Assembly (NCBI GenBank): GCA_044892505.1
Contig: CM097882.1
Location: forward strand, 137,826,001 to 137,868,611
Reading direction: 5' to 3'
DNA: 42,611 nucleotides
DNA from: Schmidtea nova
Taxonomy: Eukaryota
A model generated the notes under the pieces. It did not search any database. It worked only from the letters and a program-made list of their open reading frames with translations, and was not told the origin of the DNA. Both the position numbers and the translations under genes were made by a program. The first letter of the stretch is position 1. Each line of letters starts with the position of its first letter. Below are positions 1 to 34,612 of the stretch, in pieces.

Positions 1-2172
1 CCCTTCTACCTGTTTGTTATTATTATTTATGAATTCGTATTGCTTCGTTTCTTTGGTTGTCTTTGACCTAATTTTGTTACTGATTTTTTCCAGCTGATTT
101 TGGTTTTCCTGTTGTTTCTTGCGATTCCGGCAATTTCTTGAAATGTGCCCTTTTTTCCCACAGTTGTAACATCCTTGAATACCACAAACTTTCTTTCCAT
201 GTCCTTTCCTTCCACATTTGGTACATACTTTGTTGTTGAAACAGCTGCTTTCTAAGTGTCCTTGTCTTTGGCAGCATTTACACCATTTGTCCTTTTTGTA
301 TAGATACTCTTCTTTGAGTTCTTGTTGACTTTTCTTTTCCTTCTTTTCCTTCTTTTCATTTTTGTTTCCTTCTTCTGCGTTTCTGGTTTGTTCTTTTCTC
401 TTTTCGACTTCTGTCATATCGTTTATTACTGACTGCTTGCTGTGTTTATTTCCCGTGACAAGTTGATCTATTGTTATCTTTCCCGTTTCTTCGATTATTT
501 CGCTTTCAATTATGGTTTTTCTGTCCTGTTCTGTTTGATTCCTAGTTTCTATTTTTCTTAGCATATTGATTCTTGGTTTATTCTTTTCTTGTTGTTTCCA
601 TAATTCTTCTATCTTTTGTGCACTATTACTTCTATTCGCCATTTTCAACATATCTGCTTTTAGTAGTTCTTCCTTTATCTTCCTGCAATGTTCCTCGTTG
701 TCACAGGCCTGTAATCCTCCTAATTTATTCCATGTGAATTCTTCTTGACGGGCTTCTTTGATTGTTGGCTTTTGTAGTTCTGATTGGCAACTGGTCATCA
801 TGTTGATTCTCAATATTTTTCTTGCTAGTTCATTTCCATTTTCTTTGAATTTCGCGGTTTCGTCCTTTTCACTTGTGACTGTTATCTGTTTGAGTACTTC
901 TTCAAATTGCTCCTTTTGTTCTTGGAATCTTCCTTGTAATATACGAGCTTCATCCCCATTTAGTTTGCTGCCACGTTCTTCTCCTATTCTTGCCTCATCT
1001 AATTGCAACTCTAGCCATTCTCGACGTTGTTTCTCTTGTGATGTTTCTTCTGTTAGTGTTGGTTCGATGAATGTAAGTTTGTTGATTTTTGGTTGTTGCG
1101 TTATTCTTGTCCTCTTTTTAATCACCTCATTTAGCCTTAAGATTTCTTGCATTAGTCTTATTTCTCTGTCATTCGGGTTGTTGCTCAGACTATTGTTTTG
1201 ATTATAGCTGTTTACTCCGTTTCCATTGGTCTGCTGGTTTCCTTGTAGATTATTTTTTGTCCCACATTTTCGTGCTATATGTCCTAATTCGCCACAACTA
1301 TAGCATCCCCGTATTCCACATATTTTCTCAGAATGTCCCCACATCTTGCACTTCTCGCAAAATTGATTTTTATAACACTCACTACTCGAATGTCCGGATT
1401 TCCAACATGTTTGGCAATGTTTGGTGTTGTTCAGGGTGTTATTGTTTCTGGGGTTATTCTTGTTGTTGACTGTATCGTCGTTATTTTCTTTCCTCGTTTG
1501 TCTGTTCCCAGTTCTTTGGTTTGATTTCTTTGGCTTAACTTGATTCCCTTCGTCTTCCGATTCGTTTGGTGTTACTGTTACGATTCTGATGTCGTTTACT
1601 CCTATGTGTAACTCATATCTATTTGCAATTTCTAGCGCATCGTCAATTGTTAGGCATCCTTTACATCCCACTTGAGCTCGAATATCTGGCCTTCTCAACC
1701 CTCGCACAAATATTGCTGTCATCAATTCTTCGTTTATAGGGTTTTCTCTGTCGAATGCTAGTTTGGATAATTTCCTTAGTTCACTTGCGTATACCGCATT
1801 TGACTCGTTCTTCCTCTGCCTTCTTGCTGAAAAATCATCGAATGCCTGGCTTAATACTTTGCTTATTCCGAATGTTTGTCGGAAGAATTCTTTTATTTCG
1901 TCCCAATTTTTAAATGGTTTGGTTCCTCTTTTGGCTTCTAGGTACAAATCTAACGCACTGTCTCTAAGGTATAGTGGGATTCGACCGATTATTGTTTCTG
2001 GATCCCATCTATATACCTCGACGAATACACCAAATTCCTTTAAAAATGTTTCTAATCTACTAGCGTCTCCATTGAATGGTTCGCCTTGAAATCTTTCTCG
2101 ATATTCTTTTCTCTTTGGTGTTATTGACGTTGCTGGTGTATCTGACTCATTTCCGTTTCTTTCGATATTCAT
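1..2172 (-). CDS. gag: Gag-like polyprotein, 3'-incomplete (no stop before window edge); capsid-like region plus six CX2CX4HX4C knuckles
   Basis: Manual translation gives an uninterrupted frame from 2562 to 1, first ATG at 2172 (MNIERNG...). It has a retrotransposon-capsid-like stretch (FNGDASRLETFLKEF...YRWDPETIIGRIPLYLRDSALDLY). Knuckles: CQTCWKSGHSSSEC, CEKCKMWGHSEKIC, CYSCGELGHIARKC (1264-1416) and CKCCQRQGHLESSC, CTKCGRKGHGKKVC, CYNCGKKGHISRNC (130-282). Confidence 0.88.
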   Translation of the reverse strand, partial: MNIERNGNESDTPATSITPKRKEYRERFQGEPFNGDASRLETFLKEFGVFVEVYRWDPETIIGRIPLYLRDSALDLYLEAKRGTKPFKNWDEIKEFFRQTFGISKVLSQAFDDFSARRQRKNESNAVYASELRKLSKLAFDRENPINEELMTAIFVRGLRRPDIRAQVGCKGCLTIDDALEIANRYELHIGVNDIRIVTVTPNESEDEGNQVKPKKSNQRTGNRQTRKENNDDTVNNKNNPRNNNTLNNTKHCQTCWKSGHSSSECYKNQFCEKCKMWGHSEKICGIRGCYSCGELGHIARKCGTKNNLQGNQQTNGNGVNSYNQNNSLSNNPNDREIRLMQEILRLNEVIKKRTRITQQPKINKLTFIEPTLTEETSQEKQRREWLELQLDEARIGEERGSKLNGDEARILQGRFQEQKEQFEEVLKQITVTSEKDETAKFKENGNELARKILRINMMTSCQSELQKPTIKEARQEEFTWNKLGGLQACDNEEHCRKIKEELLKADMLKMANRSNSAQKIEELWKQQEKNKPRINMLRKIETRNQTEQDRKTIIESEIIEETGKITIDQLVTGNKHSKQSVINDMTEVEKRKEQTRNAEEGNKNEKKEKKEKKSQQELKEEYLYKKDKWCKCCQRQGHLESSCFNNKVCTKCGRKGHGKKVCGIQGCYNCGKKGHISRNCRNRKKQQENQNQLEKISNKIRSKTTKETKQYEFINNNNKQVEG

Positions 2173-3544
2173 TTTCCTGCTTCTTGTTTCCCTGTTTCTT
2201 GTTTCCCTATTTGTTGCTTTATTCTCCGTATACTTTTCTGGTTGTTCAATTTGTGCTTGGCTTTTCCTAGAGTTATCTTCGATGCTTGTTCTTGTTGTCT
2301 TTTGATAGAATTGGGTGTTTATTGAAATTTCTCTGTTTTCTTTGATGCTTGATTCACTGTTTGTGTTCTGGGTGTATTTATCGTTTGTTCTTTGATAGGG
2401 TCTTTTTATTGATACTGATCGTGCTCTTTTAATTTTTTTTTCTACTACGGATTTGTCTAATAATTGGTTAAATTTTGAGCTGGGTCTGAATTTTTCTATG
2501 TAAAGATTCTCAATGATGGCGAATTTCTTTACTGATTTGGATTCCGATTTTGGTACGGTTACTCAATTTACCGTTGGCTTCTTTTTGACTTGGGTTTGTC
2601 CTCTTGAATTATGTTTTACTTGTTCTGTATCTGTAGCTTTCTGTTCGTTTGACTTGTTGGTTGTTGTTGACTTGAATTGGTTGCTTGGTTCGTTGTTTGA
2701 TTGAAATCTACAAAAAAAAATACACTTTTAACCATTTGGGTGGCTGTCACCGCTCACCCAGTTCCTTCAAATAATTATTATTAAATAAATTCTGCTCTTT
2801 AGTTTTTTCGAATATTTATGGGTATTTTATGGCTCGGTTATCTTTCTCCCTTGATTTTAGTCTATTCTATCTGTATTGCAATATTAATTGTACTTTACCT
2901 CGTCGTAATTCATCTTAGACAATTAGTTTATTAACTTCATCACTTTGAACTTTTCAGTGTTTTGTTGCTTTTATTATTTTGGTAATTATGTTTCTTGACA
3001 CTTAATTCTCTAAATCGATGTAATTCTTTTGAATTATTCTATATCCTTGCTTCTTGTGGTCTTTATGTCCTTTCTTATGATATCTCGAATTCTCTCAAAT
3101 TTAGTTGTTTTACTCTCGTCATCTTCACTATTTTCTCTAGTCGATGATTCTTAGTTTATTTGTCTTTTATTTCACACAATTATTATCTACTCGTTCCTAC
3201 AACTTTTACTTGCTCGTACAGCTATGGTTTTAATTGTTTATAACACTTTTATTTTACTTGTTTATACCCCTTTTACTTGTTCGTTTTTTACTCCGTTCTA
3301 TCCTTTGTTATTTTACTTTAACTATGTATGCTGGTTTTTTTTTTAGTCAGTATTTAGACTACATCATCAGCTTGTCTCTCGTATCCTTTTAATCCTCTGA
3401 TGCGCACCTTTTAACTCTATGAAACTCTAATCGTCGAAAACTTTATTTTCCTCAATCGCTATTACTATTTCTACTATCCGGATAGTTTTTAATGACTCTC
3501 TTTAATCTAATAATTTCTAAAATAAACCCTTAACTTTCAAATTA

Positions 3545-4782
3545 TTTTATGCCCCTTTTAATATATTGACGGCTATATGTCCCTTGGCCTCAATTTTATT
3601 TTATGTCCCTTTTAATATATTCATGGCTCTATATGTCCCTTGGCCTCAATTTTATTTTATGTCCCTTTTAATATATTCATGGCTCTATATGTCCTTTGGC
3701 CTCAATTTTATTTTATGTCCCTTTTAATATATTCATGGCTCTATATGTCCCTTGGCCTCAATTTTATTTTATGTCTCTTTTAATATATTCATGGCTCTAT
3801 ATGTCCCTTGGCCTCAATTTTATTTTATGTCCCTTTTAATATATTCATGGCTCTATATGTCCCTTGGCCTCAATTTTATTTTATGTCCCTTTTAATATAT
3901 TCATGGCTCTATATGTCCCTTGGCCTCAATTTTATTTTATTTCCCTTTTAATATATTCATGGCTCTATATGTCCTTTGGCCTCAATTTTATTTTATGTCC
4001 CTTTTAATATATTCATGGCTCTATATGTCCTTTGGCCTCAATTTTATTTTATGTCCCTTTTAATATATTCATGGCTCTATATGTCCCTTGGCCTCAATTT
4101 TATTTTATGTCCCTTTTAATATATTCATGGCTCTATATGTCCTTTGGCCTCAATTTTATTTTATGTCCCTTTTAATATATTCATGGCTCTATATGTCCCT
4201 TGGCCTCAATTTTATTTTATGTCTCTTTTAATATATTCATGGCTCTATATGTCCCTTGGCCTCAATTTTATTTTATGTCCCTTTTAATATATTCATGGCT
4301 CTATATGTCCCTTGGCCTCAATTTTATTTTATGTCCCTTTTAATATATTCATGGCTCTATATGTCCCTTGGCCTCAATTTTATTTTATTTCCCTTTTAAT
4401 ATATTCATGGCTCTATATGTCCTTTGGCCTCAATTTTATTTTATGTCCCTTTTAATATATTCATGGCTCTATATGTCCCTTGGCCTCAATTTTATTTTAT
4501 GTCCCTTTTAATATATTCATGGCTCTATATGTCCCTTGGCCTCAATTTTATTTTATGTCCCTTTTAATATATTCATGGCTCTATATGTCCCTTGGCCTCA
4601 ATTTTATTTTATGTCCCTTTTAATATATTCATGGCTCTATATGTCCCTTGGCCTCAATTTTATTTTATGTCCCTTTTAATATATTCATGGCTCTATATGT
4701 CCCTTGGCCTCAATTTTATTTTATGTCCCTTTTAATATATTCATGGCTCTATATGTCCCTTGGCCTCAATTTTATTTTATGT
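3545..4782. repeat. Tandem array of a 56-bp unit, ~22 copies, inside the retrotransposon leader
   Basis: Unit ttatgtcccttttaatatattcatggctctatatgtcccttggcctcaattttatt recurs with exact 56-nt period (3601, 3881, 4441); only a few point variants. Confidence 0.97.
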
Positions 4783-6619
4783 TTCTCACATGGCACACTG
4801 GCCTTATTTATCCTATTCTGAGTTGATTTTCCATTTATCTTATTCTAGACCGGTCTATTTATGGCCGTTAATTATCGGCAACTATATTTACTAATCTCAG
4901 TTGATTAATTCCTACTACCTCTATTCATTCTAACTTCTACAACGTCGTTTTATTCTGATTTTTCGGTATTCTCGTTTTTATGCTATCGTCTTTTATCGTT
5001 ACTTAATTGTTATTCATGCTAGCTAGCTTTTATTTCACTTTCCTTACTCGCTATATTTACCTGGTTCGTTTCAATTGTTACTTTTCCCCTGCTTTCTTGG
5101 TTCTGACAGCGCTGTTTCTACTATGTTTCAAATTCTCGTGATGTTTTATTAGTTTAATTTTATTTCTTGTAAGCTTACAGATTTTCTCTCTTGCTTCTAT
5201 GATTTAACTATTCACGGTGTATTTTTATATTACCTATTTTTATTGCGCACTTTTTATAATTTATATTCGTTATGGGATTTCCTTCACTTCCTGACTCCAG
5301 ATAAGAGACAATCGCACTAGTCCATTCCAGAATCGTATGGTGATCAGTCACACGCAAGAATTTTCCAGCCTCTGCGATGGTACCCAGTCTCTCATCCTTC
5401 ATCGAGGATGATCGGTAATTTCCAAATTATTATATCGTACTACCTTTGTGGTAGCTCAAAAATTCGTTTTACTATTACCTAACAAGCTATTCAACATACA
5501 CTAAATTGAAAATAATTGGTTCTATTCGAATGATTTGGTTCTAAATCTTTTCCTTTTTAATTTACCCATCTTTTAGTTTGATTTCCCTACCAGCCAGTCT
5601 TTATTCGGTTACTTTGTGATCTACTATCGTCTATCTTAATTTTGTTATCCCTTTTTTTAACTTATTTTGTCTCTACCCCGTTATTTCTGGATTCTGTTTT
5701 GAGTTTAGCTCATTTTTTTTTAATTGTCCTTTTACACGATTTTACTTTTGCTTCCGTTCATTTCGTTTAATTTTTATTATTCGTCTCTGTTCGTAATGTT
5801 TACTGTTGTTTGTTTCCCCCGATTCCCCGGTCTTACTTTATTAGACCTGCTTTTCTTTCTCGTCGAATTTATCTTTCAAGTAGGCATGTCATCCGTTTTT
5901 TATAGTTTTAATTTCCGGTTAGCGTTTTCTTTTAATATTTTCTGTGCTGTTCTCTCCGCGGTTTCCTCCAAATGTCGACCTCGACATAATGTTCGTTTTG
6001 TATTTGTTAACGTCATATATGTTGTTTGCAATTTATCTTTGATCTTGACTTTTTCTCTTTGAGTAACGTAGTTCTCGTCCGATAAGTTTTCAGCTTGTGT
6101 ATTTTCCCTGGTTATTTACTACTTTTAAAGCTTTTACTTTAGCTTGGTTCGACTTTACCTCTTGATTTACTACTAACTTCCTTATAACTTTCATATTTTT
6201 CGCAAACAAACGTCTTTATCCATTTACATTAGTTGTTTTTATATTTACTTTACTTTTGGCTTTATATCGGTTATTTCTTTCGTTTTATTCAATCATACTT
6301 CCTTTCCCACCTTTCTCTATTCAAACGTTCCTCTATGCGAATCTTTCAACAAATTCTAAGCACTTATCCTTTATTCACTCACATTTTTCTATCTGGTAAT
6401 GGTTTTTATCACAAAAGCCAGATCAAAACATAATACTTTGCACTAATTGCATTCCATTTGCTGATTTCGACATAATTTCTGTAACGACGCTGTATTTCTT
6501 TTTCCAATATTTGCTCTAGCAACTACAAAATTTGATTTATTCCTTGTTTTTCGTTTCATTATAGCTTTGAACGTTAATCATTGTCTTTCCGCTTAAATTT
6601 TCGGCGGGTCCTATTCATT

Positions 6620-7200
6620 CTAACAAGATGAGTATTTTCCGTTTTCGGGCATTATTCATTGTTAGTCAATGCATATTTTCAATTTTGACGTTAATTACTG
6701 CAATATTTCCTATATTTCCGATTTTGATTTTTTTTTTCACTGTACTGCAACACATTCTTTTTATTTTGATGTTGTTCACTGAAATATTACATATCTTATC
6801 GCTTTTGATATCATTCACTGATATGTCACGTATCTTTTCGATTTCGATGATATTCATTGACACGCAATATGCATTTTCGCCTTTGGTGTTGTTTGTTGAA
6901 GCTCCTCATTAAATTTCGATTTTATTGGTTGATATACAATCCTTTTCCAACTTTTGATGTTAATCACTGAAATATGTTCGTTCTCATTACTTTCGATGCA
7001 GTACAATTTTGTTTCGTCAGTTTTGATGTTATTCACAGTCATATTATGCATTTTAAATATTTAAATATTATTCATTGTCATATCACAAATTTTACCTATT
7101 TTTATGTTATTCATCGTCATATCAACTATTTTATCTATTTTGATGTTAATCATTGTACTACTATTTATTTTACAGAATTTGCTGTTATTCACTGCAATCT
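6620..7200 (-). pseudogene. Decayed reading frame made of ~39-bp / 13-aa repeats (consensus about MTVNNIKIxKIxD)
   Basis: Translation gives units STMINIKIDKIVD, MTMNNIKIGKICD, MTMNNI*IFKMHN, MTVNNIKTDETK, ISVNDIKSDKICN, ISVNNIKIKRMCC, IAVINVKIENMH. It is broken by a TAA at 7061-7063 and a frameshift near 6860. Confidence 0.5.
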
Positions 7201-7583
7201 AACCATCCGTTTTTAGGTATAATTTAATGTCTGCTTGTTCTACCATTAATTCATTGTAACACGAATCATCCTACTAAATTCAACGACATTCATACCATAC
7301 AGCTCTTAATATTTGTTTTGTACTGTAATTTACTGTTAACTTATTCAACTATCAATCTGAATGCTATTCATTATCCTTACAATGTTATTACTTGCCTAGT
7401 CACTCCCCATCAACTATTGCTTCGCTTTCCTTAATATAATCACTTTCATCTCGCGGGAGAACGCACTCTTTTTCATTTTATTTTTATTTTTACCCATAAA
7501 AATCGCTATCAATTCCGGCTAATTATGCACGACAAAACTCTTTCTTTATGTTTGTTTTTCACTTTCCCCATAAAACTACTTTC

Positions 7584-7601
7584 ATCCCGGCTGAGCCCCC
7601 A
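7584..7601 (-). promoter_or_regulatory. Primer-binding site complementary to the 3' end of tRNA-Pro
   Basis: Minus strand reads TGGGGGCTCAGCCGGGAT, 16/18 identical to the classic PBS-Pro TGGGGGCTCGTCCGGGAT, and lies upstream of gag in the correct orientation. Confidence 0.82.
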
Positions 7602-9391
7602 AATTTATGCTGGGTTTATGGGTGGGTTTTAAATAATTAATAATAAATAAATAATAATTAAACAAATAATCATAACTAAGTAAACTAGGGATGCCTCACC
7701 CATAACCATACATAAAAAACAAATCGTCTCACTCGCACGCCCCTAACTATTCCCTATCTAGTTAGGTTGGAACTGCGCGCGGTGGCTGAAAAATGATGGG
7801 CAGGTGAGCTCCATCGCTGGAACTACTCCCCATTTATTTTCACGGGTTCCCGCTGCCGCTAGAAGGTCTTACGCGTTATTCTCTCAATGTCTACGCTCAA
7901 ATTCCTTAAAAAAAATTAACAAACGTCTTTTAAATAGAGATTTTATTTAGCTACAAACTCCTTACGCTATATAAAACCCAAAATAATGCGCTGCACCTTA
8001 AAATTATATTTATTTATAAAAACTCTCGAAAATTTCCTTTACTCAAAATCACCGCTATGTCGTTGCATTGTTATGCGTAACAAAATCTATTGATCAAGTT
8101 CGTCTTGCTAACATTTTAATTCTGAAATTAAATCACTACATAAGATGTAAAATTCCTGTAAAGCTCCAAAATTATCGCTGAAAAATGCGCAAACCTCAAA
8201 ACCTATCGTTCAACACTCAAAAATCCTATCATTATATGAAACCCTCAAAATCTATCGCAATTTCCAAAACTATTCTCTATGTGCAACCATTCATTATGTG
8301 CAAACTCAAAAATATCCGAAAAAATCCCAGATACATAAATTATAAAAAGGTACAACCGCCGTGTGAAGCGACGAGGCTCCACGATGACGACTATGTCTCC
8401 CTCGCCGCGTTAGCAGCCTAGGAAGCATAACTATGTAAATATTTTATATAATAACTACAATAATACTCATCATCGAATATTTATTTTCGGAAAAATTAGC
8501 CTCAAAACTTTACTAGGACCACTACTTAACAAATTACCCAACACATCTCACACAAAAATATTCAAATAACACAAAAATACCCGTTCGAAATCGATCCACA
8601 CGACTGGCGAAATCAAAACCAAAATTTTGCTCTCAGTAAATTAATGCCAAGTAAGTTTAGATTGTGATTTTTCAGCATCTATTTATACTAATTTTACTGA
8701 CGCTTAGATATTTTGTTATTTACATAATTTATTAACAATTTAAACTTACTTATTAGTTTTAATAAGTGAGCATTTATTTATCTTTCATAAATTTAACTTT
8801 ATAATTTGATTTATTTATTTCGAAAATATTTGTTTTTAATTCTATTAAATTAGGTGTGTATCTATTGTTTTATTGTGCATTTATTGATTAAAACAATTTA
8901 ATTTTAAATCTATTTTCATTCCTATCTCTGTTAATTTTTGCGATATTTCAATGGGGATTTATTCTATAATTTTTAATAAATTATTTTCTTTATTCTGATA
9001 CTGATTTTATTCTTTGATCATGCTTTTCATAATCACTTTACAAGTACTGATCTTCCCCATTCAATTCTCATGCGGTCCTTCGTGTGTAAATCCGACCTGC
9101 ACTCAAATTGTGTGCTCTTCCTTGAGATGCCTCTTTTTTATCGCTTCAACCTTATCTCGATCGATTTATAAGATGCTGTTCGTATGACTACTATTGTACT
9201 TAACTGTTTTTATTTTCCTTGCGTTATTTTACTGCTTACGGTCTTGTCGTGCGTTTCTCTTTGTTTCTCATTGTATGTATTTAATTTTTAATAATTTTTA
9301 ATTAAATTCTATTTTTGATTTCACCAGCCCAACAATTGCTTAAAAAAAATAAAATCCTGGCGTCTTATAAATAGGACGCTGGGCTATAACA
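7602..9391 (-). mobile_element. Candidate 5' LTR (~1.8 kb)
   Basis: Abuts the PBS. The distal end on the minus strand begins TGTTATAG at 9391, where the compositional skew changes. The second LTR and TSD are not visible, so the outer boundary is provisional. Confidence 0.55.
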
Positions 9392-25782: not shown

Positions 25783-25950
25783 TGTTAATATTTATAACTA
25801 GACAATAGCTATATCTAATATGTCTAGTCATGAAATAAAATAATTTATAGAATTTCATAATAAAACTATGAAAAATAAAAAATTGGAATTATTTTACACA
25901 CATAAAATAGTAAAATTACGTTCTACTAGTTGAACTAATATTTAATTCAG

Positions 25951-26269
25951 GATGTTTTAGAAAGTCATCCGGGCTTGACATTTTTGCTCTCTGCCCGAGA
26001 TTTTCACTCTCGATACATTGCTACAGTTGTATACAGAATATTTTTCGGTGTAAATTCATCCTGGTCTGGTAAAATCACTTTGCAAGAATTGGAAAAATCC
26101 GATTTATTATTAATATTGGAATCGTTAGAAACAACAGACGATATCAACACAATTACACAGTATTTCTCATATGAACATTTCTACGTTATTTATTGCAAAT
26201 TCTGGGAACTGGACGAAGATCACGATTTGGTTATTAGTAAGGCAGATTTAGCTCGGCATAACAACTATG
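25951..26269 (+). CDS. PPP2R3: PP2A B'' exon (EF-hand region)
   Basis: DVLESHPGLTFL...FHSRYIATVVYRIFF.VN.SWSGKIT...FSYEHFYVIYCKFWELDEDHDL...LARHN is the hallmark B'' sequence; ttcag/gtaat boundaries. Confidence 0.97.
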
Positions 26270-27066
26270 GTAATTTTTGTATAAAATTTAGTGAATCTAG
26301 TCTTTTAAATATATAATAAATCTTATTATGCAACAAAATTTTGGTTGACAGAAAACTGCGGCGTATTATATACAATATTTAATATAGAAAATTCATTAAA
26401 GCAAAATTTTATTTTTTTACTTAGTGACTGTCAGACAAAGTTCGAACAGAATTATGCCTCGGTGTCGTTTTGATTTATAGTTCCTAGGATTTAGATGTTC
26501 AGAAAATAGATACAAATTGTATCATTCAATAAAACTATTGTCGTAGAGATTTAGAGAAATAACTCCGAGTTCAATTTTTAAAACGAGTTTAAAACTGATT
26601 TGTTTAAATGCAGTGGTCAGTTACCAGAGTAAATTATCACAAAATAGGGAGAAGGGAAGTAGGCGAAAAAATATATATAAATAACTATACTATTTTATGT
26701 TAATTGAGACGTGAGTACTATTTGGTTGTAAAATTTTATTTTGCTGACTTGTTTATTTCGGGTGGTGACATGTTTAAGGTGACGTAAGAGTGACAGTTTT
26801 GAGCTGAAAGGAAACATGTTTAATTCGAACTGGTAATATAGAAACAAAAATATATAGTTTAGGGTAATATCTGTAGGAAGCTAGCCAACTTCTGGTGTAA
26901 TCATAAAATAAGTGTAGAAACATTCATTCCGTGTTAGAGATTTTGAGAAGTGGAATTCTTATTTTGTGATACTAAATGTGAACTGATTTTTAATAATCAG
27001 AAATTTGTTCATTTAAGCCTTATGGCTTATCAAAAAAATTCAAATTATAAGTAGTAAGTTAATAAA

Positions 27067-30105: not shown

Positions 30106-30457
30106 AGGTAATTGTAAGGCGCCTAAGGCGCCCGTTGACAAATCATAAAAGTTTATTTTGCAAAATAAAAATTAAAAATTAATCAAGAGTTGCAACTCAA
30201 GTGAAGGTGCTTATTGAATCGAATCCACAGCAAGAAAATCTTTGAATGATCAAAGACAATTCACACGGAATGTAGTTTTTCAAGACGTTCTTCAATAAAA
30301 ACAATTTTTTTGCCATTCCATATATATATATAACAGAAATAATTTTCAATTGCTTAAGAATAAAAGAAATTTAATTTTTAATAAAAATTTCGTACATCAA
30401 ATTGTTCTTTTATTTTATTATTTGTCAACGGGCGCCTTATGCGCCTTACAATTACCT
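30106..30457. mobile_element. MITE with ~45-bp terminal inverted repeats, superfamily unassigned
   Basis: AGGTAATTGTAAGGCGC(C/A)TAAGGCGCCCGTTGACAAAT(C/A)ATAAAA at both ends in inverted orientation; no TSD recognisable. Confidence 0.8.
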
Positions 30458-30468
30458 CACAATTACTA

Positions 30469-31105
30469 TTATCCTAAACGTTGCCTATAATCTTTCGCCT
30501 TTTATCCTAAATGTGTCCCTATAATCTTTCGCCTTTTATCCTAAATGTTTCCATATAATCTTTCGCCTTTTATCCTAAATGTCTCCCTATAATCTTTCGC
30601 CTTTTATCCTAAATGTTTCCATATAATCTTTCGCCTTTTATCCTAAATGTTTCCATATAATCTTTCGCCTTTTATCCTAAATGTTTCTCGATTCAATAGT
30701 GTTAGAATCATAGTGTTAGAAAATGATAGTGTTAGAATCAACCAATCAGCGAGCGTTATAGAATCAGTCAGTGAATCAGTGATGAGCGTAATTATTATAT
30801 GGATGTCTCCCTATGTTTCTTTATAATCTTTCGCCATTTATCCTAAATGTCTCCCTATAATCTTTCGCCTTTTATCCTAAATGTTTCCATATAATCTTTC
30901 GCCTTTTATCCTAAATGTTTCCATATAATCTTTCGCCTTTTATCCTAAATGTTTCCATATAATCTTTCGCCTTTTATCCTAAATGTTTCTCGATTCAATA
31001 GTGTTAGAATCATAGTGTTAGAAAATGATAGTGTTAGAATCAACCAATCAGCGAGCGTTATAGAATCAGTCAGTGAATCAGTGATGAGCGTAATTATTAT
31101 ATGGA
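30469..31105. repeat. 34-bp minisatellite arrays with a duplicated ~115-bp spacer block
   Basis: Unit taatctttcgccttttatcctaaatgtttccata (~6 + ~5 copies); block gattcaatagtgttagaatc...attatatggat repeated 301 bp apart. Confidence 0.93.
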
Positions 31106-31693
31106 TTTTACTTATCTGCAGTTTTTTAAACCATAGATTATTGTGTTACTTTATATTATCACTCAATAGTTTTGTTGGGTAAAACTGAGTATAATAAATC
31201 TAATTTTAAATCAAGCTATAACATAACATGTAGAGATTACAAGAGAAGTTTATTTAAATAATTGAACAAAGACCAAGTAAACAAAAATAAAATAACATGT
31301 AAGAAAAATTTAAAACAAAAATGAAGATTAACCTCAGTAAGAGGCAAGAAGTAAACACGAAGGAAATTAACTACAGCAAATTAATAAAAATTTGATAAAT
31401 TCACAAATTTTAAAATTTTAAAATTTCAGGAAATTTGATAATTAATTATTTCAATTTTAATAGTTTAATGATAAAATTAAAAAGAAAAATAGTAAAAATT
31501 AAAAATAAATTATATTAGTCAAAATCAGTGTAAAGTATAAAAATTTAAGTAAAGATGTAGTACCTCAGACTTTTCAATTTAATTATGACATTAAATTATT
31601 AATTAAATTATAATTGTAATATATTAAATGAACTTTTTTTCTTTTTATTTTAAATAAGAAAAAAATGCACTTTTTCACATTCAAAAAACTAAA

Positions 31694-34175: not shown

Positions 34176-34480
34176 GTAGATTGTTTTTGGAGAATAGGCT
34201 TATTTTGTTACTTATTTATTAATTAATTTAATACTTAATGCTGCNNNNNNNNNNNNNNNNNNNNNNNNNNNNNNNNNNNNNNNNNNNNNNNNNNNNNNNN
34301 NNNNNNNNNNNNNNNNNNNNNNNNNNNNNNNNNNNNNNNNNNNNNNNNNNNNNNNNNNNNNNNNNNNNNNNNNNNNNNNNNNNNNNNNNNNNNNNNNNNN
34401 NNNNNNNNNNNNNNNNNNNNNNNNNNNNNNNNNNNNNNNNNNNNNNNACTATAGATCAAAATTTTTTTTTATAAACAATA

Positions 34481-34513
34481 ACACAATATTTCGGCACAGC
34501 CTTTATCAAGTGT
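34481..34513 (-). ncRNA. Minimal type I hammerhead ribozyme (U3-A8 variant), mirror copy
   Basis: Exact reverse complement of 38986-39018. Confidence 0.65.
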
Positions 34514-34612
34514 GTATTTCTATCGTTATATTTACTTAATCCTAAATAGTAGCCTTAATTATTTTTTTAATATTTTATAATGATTTTATTGGATGAAAAA
34601 ATTTATTTTATT

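Follow-up and report, generated by a model that had tools for sequence, protein, structure and literature searches.

The question raised by this locus is why the Gag protein of a retrotransposon would carry two sets of zinc knuckles. According to the original prediction, Gypsy Gags usually have zero to three CCHC knuckles in one block. This agrees with the zero to three CCHC arrays given for LTR-element nucleocapsids in the accessible portions of two surveys (PMC2774666, PMC2577118), and the related autonomous family described below has a single triplet. In the window, i.e. the whole 42.6-kb stretch (42,611 nucleotides) of Schmidtea nova DNA that was analysed, a scan of all six frames found exactly six C-x2-C-x4-H-x4-C motifs, all in one frame of the minus strand. 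The arrangement described beforehand was recovered in full: two blocks of 51 aa with three CCHC knuckles each, spacers of 5 and then 4 aa, and the linkers GIRG and GIQG. The distance between the blocks, put at about 330 aa, was measured as 327 aa, and the frame indeed has no stop within the window. The proposed gag span of 130..1416 does contain the six knuckles, but it is incomplete: the gene is on the minus strand and its ORF runs beyond the left window edge.

Domain structure of the Gag protein

At the single locus fetched for this purpose, the ORF comprises 1,031 codons from stop to stop, 177 of which lie beyond the left window edge. Extension of the contig, which had been suggested for reading through into pol, thus revealed a continuation of the ORF that holds one more knuckle, the seventh (aa 880), giving a 3+3+1 layout, but no pol after it. 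The first Met is codon 131, and Gag therefore has a length of 901-1,031 aa. Pfam detects Retrotrans_gag (PF03732, E 1.7e-6) and zf-CCHC in the ORF. The capsid model, with a pLDDT mostly above 90, matches the folds of the dArc, Arc, PNMA2 and Ty3 capsids, the best match being dArc1 (E 7.3e-4). The assignment to the Ty3/Gypsy type is supported by the PF03732 match and these fold matches. A word-index protein search with Gag gave nothing, the hits from a search of representative proteins were limited to distant Gags and generic proteins with knuckles, and the best score of an Atlas search (0.82) was uninformative.

The two triplets align in register, with 26 of 51 residues identical. Their local alignment score of 208 was reached by none of 300 shuffles, which scored 44.7 +/- 7.7. 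Knuckles at matching positions of the two triplets are identical at 8, 9 and 10 of 19 residues, and other pairs at 5-7. Different codons are used at 18 of the 26 residues common to both triplets, which indicates that their split is old. The net charge is +10 for triplet 2 against +4 for triplet 1. According to structure prediction the linker between the triplets forms isolated long helices. It is collinear with the Gag of the helper family described below up to about aa 530 (window position 973), and beyond that point no relative was detectable.

Table 1. Features of the gag-bearing element, in window coordinates unless another locus is named.
Feature	Position	Strand	Evidence or remark
5' LTR, 1,727 bp, TG...CA	7608..9334	minus	99.88% identical to 3' LTR
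Primer binding site, 18 nt	7584..7601	minus	18/18 bases complementary to the 3' end of host tRNA-Pro(TGG), including CCA
Leader, 5 kb, without long ORF	2563..7583	minus	
39-bp repeats in leader	6763-7191		
56-bp tandem array in leader, 22 copies	3542-4782		
130 open codons ahead of first ATG, putatively coding	2173..2562	minus	
Capsid domain (retrotransposon Gag)	1579..2100	minus	PF03732, fold match, dN/dS
Knuckle triplet 1	1264..1416	minus	occupies the same place as the single triplet of the helper
Knuckles 1-3 (triplet 1)	1416-1375, 1359-1318, 1305-1264	minus	CCHC motif scan
Linker, 327 aa	283..1263	minus	helper alignment, predicted structure
Candidate protease-site motifs in linker	1086-1072 (loose), 807-793, 570-556	minus	
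Knuckle triplet 2	130..282	minus	absent from helper; first knuckle (282-241) dead in one subfamily
Knuckles 4-6 (triplet 2)	282-241, 225-184, 171-130	minus	CCHC motif scan
ORF end	1..129, then out of window	minus	knuckle 7, predicted long helix, stop 531 bases past edge
3' LTR	outside window, L021:6062-7788		starts 1.68 kb past gag stop

Structure and copies of the element

This gag is the only gene of an LTR retrotransposon of 13,273 bp (Table 1) with a 4-bp target duplication, CAAT. The sequence of its primer binding site is identical in the helper family; an Rfam tRNA search was unspecific. Genes for tRNA-Pro(TGG) form a tandem array with a period of 308 bp at another locus (L133, G000:C1:459.6 Mb), and the tRNA-Pro(TGG) pattern has 1,106 matches in the genome. 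Splice-like signals were recognized by eye at about 2700-2760 on the minus strand, just upstream of the open codons that precede the first ATG, and the helper likewise has 153-173 open codons ahead of its first Met. Four contig runs of one study showed splice-like joints at none of the sites suspected, a result that says nothing on expression. The 1.68 kb from the gag stop to the 3' LTR include a polypurine tract and no long ORF. An integrase remnant, suspected by eye in this 3' region, found no support: the region does not match the helper, and blastp and phmmer searches against 242 fetched ORFs were negative. The element's own LTR holds only one Pumilio motif.

The genome contains at least 150 scored capsid matches, at 88-100%, and 64 of these at least 150 copies were read. 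Pol is absent from all 64: the 40 that a knuckle query retrieved, the four that were read first and the 20 that came from a capsid query. Of the last group 17 reach LTR sequence and three are cut or interrupted earlier. The LTR pairs of the three copies compared are 99.88, 99.83 and 99.94% identical, and the element has multiplied recently. All seven knuckles are intact in 35 of the 40 knuckle-query copies, a count that is biased by the way in which this set was obtained. Indels common to several copies are in frame, and frameshifts are confined to single copies. The subfamilies L068-L080 and L081-L093 have a common gag, but parts of their LTR and of their 3' region are different, and some ORFs resemble mosaics of subfamilies. 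These differences and the mosaic ORFs point to recombination between copies.

A candidate helper family

A pattern combining the LTR end and the primer site occurs 398 times, compared to none for the control. Among 100 of these places listed, 33 have a match to the family capsid downstream and 67 do not. Of the capsid-less junctions, 15 of 20 sampled lead into another family, and with a second pattern this was 16 of 20. This family, termed the helper for brevity, has one Gag-Env-PR-RT-IN frame of about 5,650 aa, in which a viral fusion domain comes first and protease, RT, RNase H and integrase come next, before ankyrin repeats; a TRAF/MATH ORF follows the frame. Frames of at least 5,400 aa were found in about 33 of 150 scored matches by hand count. 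The LTRs measure 3.1-3.3 kb and the distance from primer site to polypurine tract is about 23 kb, giving a total of about 30 kb; LTR pairs are 99.91-99.97% identical. The helper Gag is 47% identical to the element Gag over aa 133-530, and in all 31 helper-type copies, for each of which 10 kb was read, the knuckles, two or three in number, form a single block. The Ty3/Gypsy pol order PR-RT-RH-IN is present in the helper, whereas the element itself has no pol. A Pfam search of a Bel/Pao pol would list a Pao family. The Pfam scan of the helper returned RVP, RVT_1, RT_RNaseH, Integrase_H2C2 and rve and no Pao family, so its pol is not of the Bel/Pao type.

Helper and element have the tRNA-Pro primer site, the polypurine tract and the LTR tips in common. 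At the 3' end of the LTR the identity is 77-79% over about 200-270 bp, while most of the LTR differs. Because the primer site, polypurine tract and LTR ends are shared, the helper likely supplies protease, RT and integrase to the element. Another donor of pol may act instead, in view of the detection of the helper via these shared ends and the divergence of most of the LTR.

Deletion derivatives of several types seem to arise from the helper family itself. Variants L145 and L146 are env-less and keep PR-RT-IN in one frame, L143, L149 and L151 keep the protease and skip RT and integrase, and in L137 protease, RT and integrase are all skipped.

A motif common to element and helper

The motif [IV][NSCH]M[LMV][RTK] was defined after the data were seen, and with this definition strict matches number two in the element Gag, both in the linker, and four and one in two halves of the helper, compared to shuffle means of 0.01-0.05. 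One of the helper sites lies after the integrase and before the ankyrin repeats, and a second helper subfamily has retained the motif. A control set of 55,051 residues gave five matches, four of which are helper fragments and only one of which is truly unrelated. All nine element ORFs compared retain INML at aa 665; the loose fourth site, at aa 929, is lost in the subfamily that lacks knuckle 4. The shared motif may be a protease site, cleavage of which would free two nucleocapsid pieces. As such it offers a candidate map of how a Burro-like polyprotein is processed, and no earlier one was found in the literature searched.

Origin of the second triplet

An old in-frame duplication was originally proposed as the source of the second triplet. 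Old, homologous triplets in one frame are present, but the data do not single out a duplication within this lineage. Outside the zinc ligands, triplets 1 and 2 are identical at 14 of 39 residues and each is identical to the helper triplet at 13 of 39, so the three are equidistant. The triplet tree has no supported branch, and the similarity stops at the flanks of the triplets, where 145 of 1000 and 504 of 1000 shuffles do as well. All three observations are consistent with a gain of triplet 2, together with knuckle 7, by recombination with another Gag of the clade. On the other hand, a G-I/V-x-G linker is common to triplets 1 and 2 and was seen in none of the helper triplets examined, which mildly favours duplication. 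Knuckle 7 with the 90 aa behind it also resembles knuckle 3 with its tail, at 27-30% over a length of 107 aa and with E 0.004-0.08 against a small database, although this likeness is weak and was reached by 31 of 1000 shuffles. A donor was found neither among the 31 helper-type copies nor among the 150 matches listed for the knuckle-7 region, all of which are 80% or more identical. Recombination is a possible origin, if one that we consider less likely than not.

Two other relationships were considered and rejected. For a duplication of capsid plus nucleocapsid with a decayed second capsid, the capsid/linker score was matched by 576 of 1000 shuffles, the model has no second globular domain, and the protein lacks a second capsid. 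Mapping of aa 531-760 onto the helper was not significant (50 of 1000 and 21 of 300 shuffles).

Selection and loss of knuckles

A dN/dS comparison of the blocks and the linker had been proposed together with the duplication. It was judged here against the spectrum of 305 singleton changes, for five subfamily pairs that overlap, and hence are not independent, and that were all drawn from intact ORFs. For the capsid, purifying selection is clear (dN/dS 0.14-0.33, p 0.008 or less in five of five pairs). Constraint on the extra half, aa 531-1030, is weak, with a dN/dS of 0.49-0.80 and p 0.011-0.078. Within it, triplet 2 gives values of 0.14-0.81 and reaches significance in one of the five pairs (L001-L071: 0.14, p 0.021); for triplet 1 there were too few changes for a verdict. 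Between intact subfamily ORFs the extra half contains no stop, where 8-25 would be expected if it were neutral.

Degradation of one triplet in other copies, named beforehand as an argument against a maintained double module, was found in part. One dead form of knuckle 4 is common to 13 of 20 copies, in a set of lower-ranked capsid matches that is enriched for divergent copies, but knuckles 5 and 6 survive in this subfamily even though the stretch is only 68-75% identical. Of the copies with a dead knuckle 4, some keep ORFs of 1,014-1,025 codons, and three, L082, L085 and L087, have lost knuckle 7 as well. A subfamily without knuckle 4 still spread; the extra module is retained, yet the element can do without part of it.

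These results could also be explained if everything past aa 530 were a passenger that stays open only so that translation of the RNA proceeds almost to its 3' end and the RNA remains stable, with the extra knuckles drifting away. The contrast between weak dN/dS and strong stop avoidance would then be expected, as would the loss of knuckle 4 and sometimes knuckle 7 in spreading subfamilies and a linker for which neither fold nor relative was found. The survival of knuckles 5 and 6 where knuckle 4 died argues against this, as do the low dN/dS of triplet 2 in the L001-L071 pair and the INML motif kept in every ORF compared. Moreover, triplet 2 is still recognizable despite near-saturated synonymous divergence. 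We consider a mere passenger role unlikely.

Possible roles of the extra nucleocapsid module

It appears probable, with appreciable room for doubt, that this pol-less element with 3+3+1 knuckles is copied by the enzymes of the co-resident Burro-like giant and that its own Gag packages its own RNA. Selection on the capsid of an element without pol suggests that Gag favours the RNA from which it is made. In the proposed mechanism the element Gag would enter particles along with the helper polyprotein, after which the helper protease could cut at the common I-x-M-hydrophobic motifs. Such cuts would release two basic, nucleocapsid-like pieces, one with triplet 1 and the other with triplet 2 and knuckle 7. 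The latter could add RNA binding and thereby aid the element in competition for particles. It would be an accessory and partly redundant gain.

A two-part animal system can also be considered, in which the helper protease cuts a satellite Gag into two nucleocapsids that serve either to out-compete the 30-kb env-bearing helper for particles or to provide it with the additional Gag that a single reading frame is unable to yield; this is a tentative proposal that we regard as quite doubtful. If the element acted as a Gag supplier, it would give extra, double-binding Gag to a helper that makes Gag and Pol in a 1:1 ratio, and so help to package helper RNA. The single helper frame, the common signals and the simultaneous recent activity of both families would be in agreement with such a role. 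However, selection on the capsid in the element lineage implies that Gag benefits the RNA of the element itself. Helper subfamilies and deletion variants that have a single triplet also spread, and the helper could make a short Gag by putative RNA processing. We regard the supplier role as improbable. An autonomous Gypsy element with a doubled nucleocapsid for packing an unusually long RNA, as originally suggested, is highly improbable in spite of two real triplets in frame, since no copy read has pol and the seven-knuckle element of 13.3 kb bears the extra knuckles while its relative of about 30 kb has one triplet, so that the long-RNA idea points the wrong way.

Comparison with known systems

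The accessible parts of two papers describe TR-GAG elements of plants as shorter than 4 kb, with LTRs and a single Gag ORF but no pol (PMC4350172, PMC8704663). The planarian element resembles these in having LTRs, a primer site, a polypurine tract and a target duplication around a single Gag ORF without pol, in its recent activity, and in its presumed use of an autonomous relative. It differs in its length of 13,273 bp, over three times that of TR-GAG elements, its 5-kb leader, its animal host, and a Gag of 901-1,031 aa with seven knuckles. In view of the differences in length and host, the element is not filed under TR-GAG. In the portions of the literature available, most descriptions of gag-only LTR elements come from plants, and the reason for keeping Gag is treated as an open question.

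For Burro/GYPSM1 of planarians, the available part of the description mentions a giant frame, a Gag with three CCHC knuckles, env before protease, ankyrin repeats and TRAF/MATH (PMC6431247). The helper fits this description on all these features. In comparison, the element has no env, pol or accessory genes, adds triplet 2 and knuckle 7, and measures 13.3 kb against about 30 kb. It is a relative or derivative of Burro and not a full member.

An Arc/Ty3-type capsid followed by a knuckle block is what the element has in common with Ty3/Gypsy; unlike these, it has seven knuckles in three separated blocks. More than three knuckles are not unique, since the library Gags P0004, P0067 and P0069 have four and the Gag-like P0024 and P0068 have five and six, in a single C-terminal cluster each. 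No Gag with separated triplets was present among the 150 matches listed. Neither a Gag with several separated triplets nor a Burro derivative reduced to gag was found in the literature searched, and planarian repeat libraries or supplements may hold the family. The portions seen of PMC8532177, PMC11410931 and the Atlas-virus preprint contain no such layout, and the same portion of the preprint gives three knuckles for Bel/Pao.

The element is not a new class. It provides an animal gag-only case with a simultaneously active candidate helper and measurable capsid selection, along with natural subfamilies of seven, six or five knuckles. The preference of a Gag for its own RNA and the part played by extra nucleocapsid modules in satellite-helper competition thereby become testable.

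Other features of the window and genome

Two ORFs with RT (Pfam RVT_1) are located at 34448-39051, one at 34613-37075 on the minus strand (820 aa) and one at 37039-38886 on the plus strand (615 aa). Both lie within a perfect inverted repeat with arms of 1,984 nt that are 636 nt apart, a layout that we take to recall Penelope-like elements. EF-hand matches were found on the plus strand at 25939-26313 and 40305-40646 (EF-hand_13, E 7e-23; EF-hand_7 weak), and these stretches are likely exons of a host gene. At 30443-31140 there is a tandem array of 34-bp units that also shows a higher-order duplication of 302 bp. Elsewhere, ORF clusters occur at L024, L025, L028, L029 and L040, the L029 set in an inverted duplicate; with their ATPase-like and polymerase-like ORFs they are presumably Maverick/Polinton-like.
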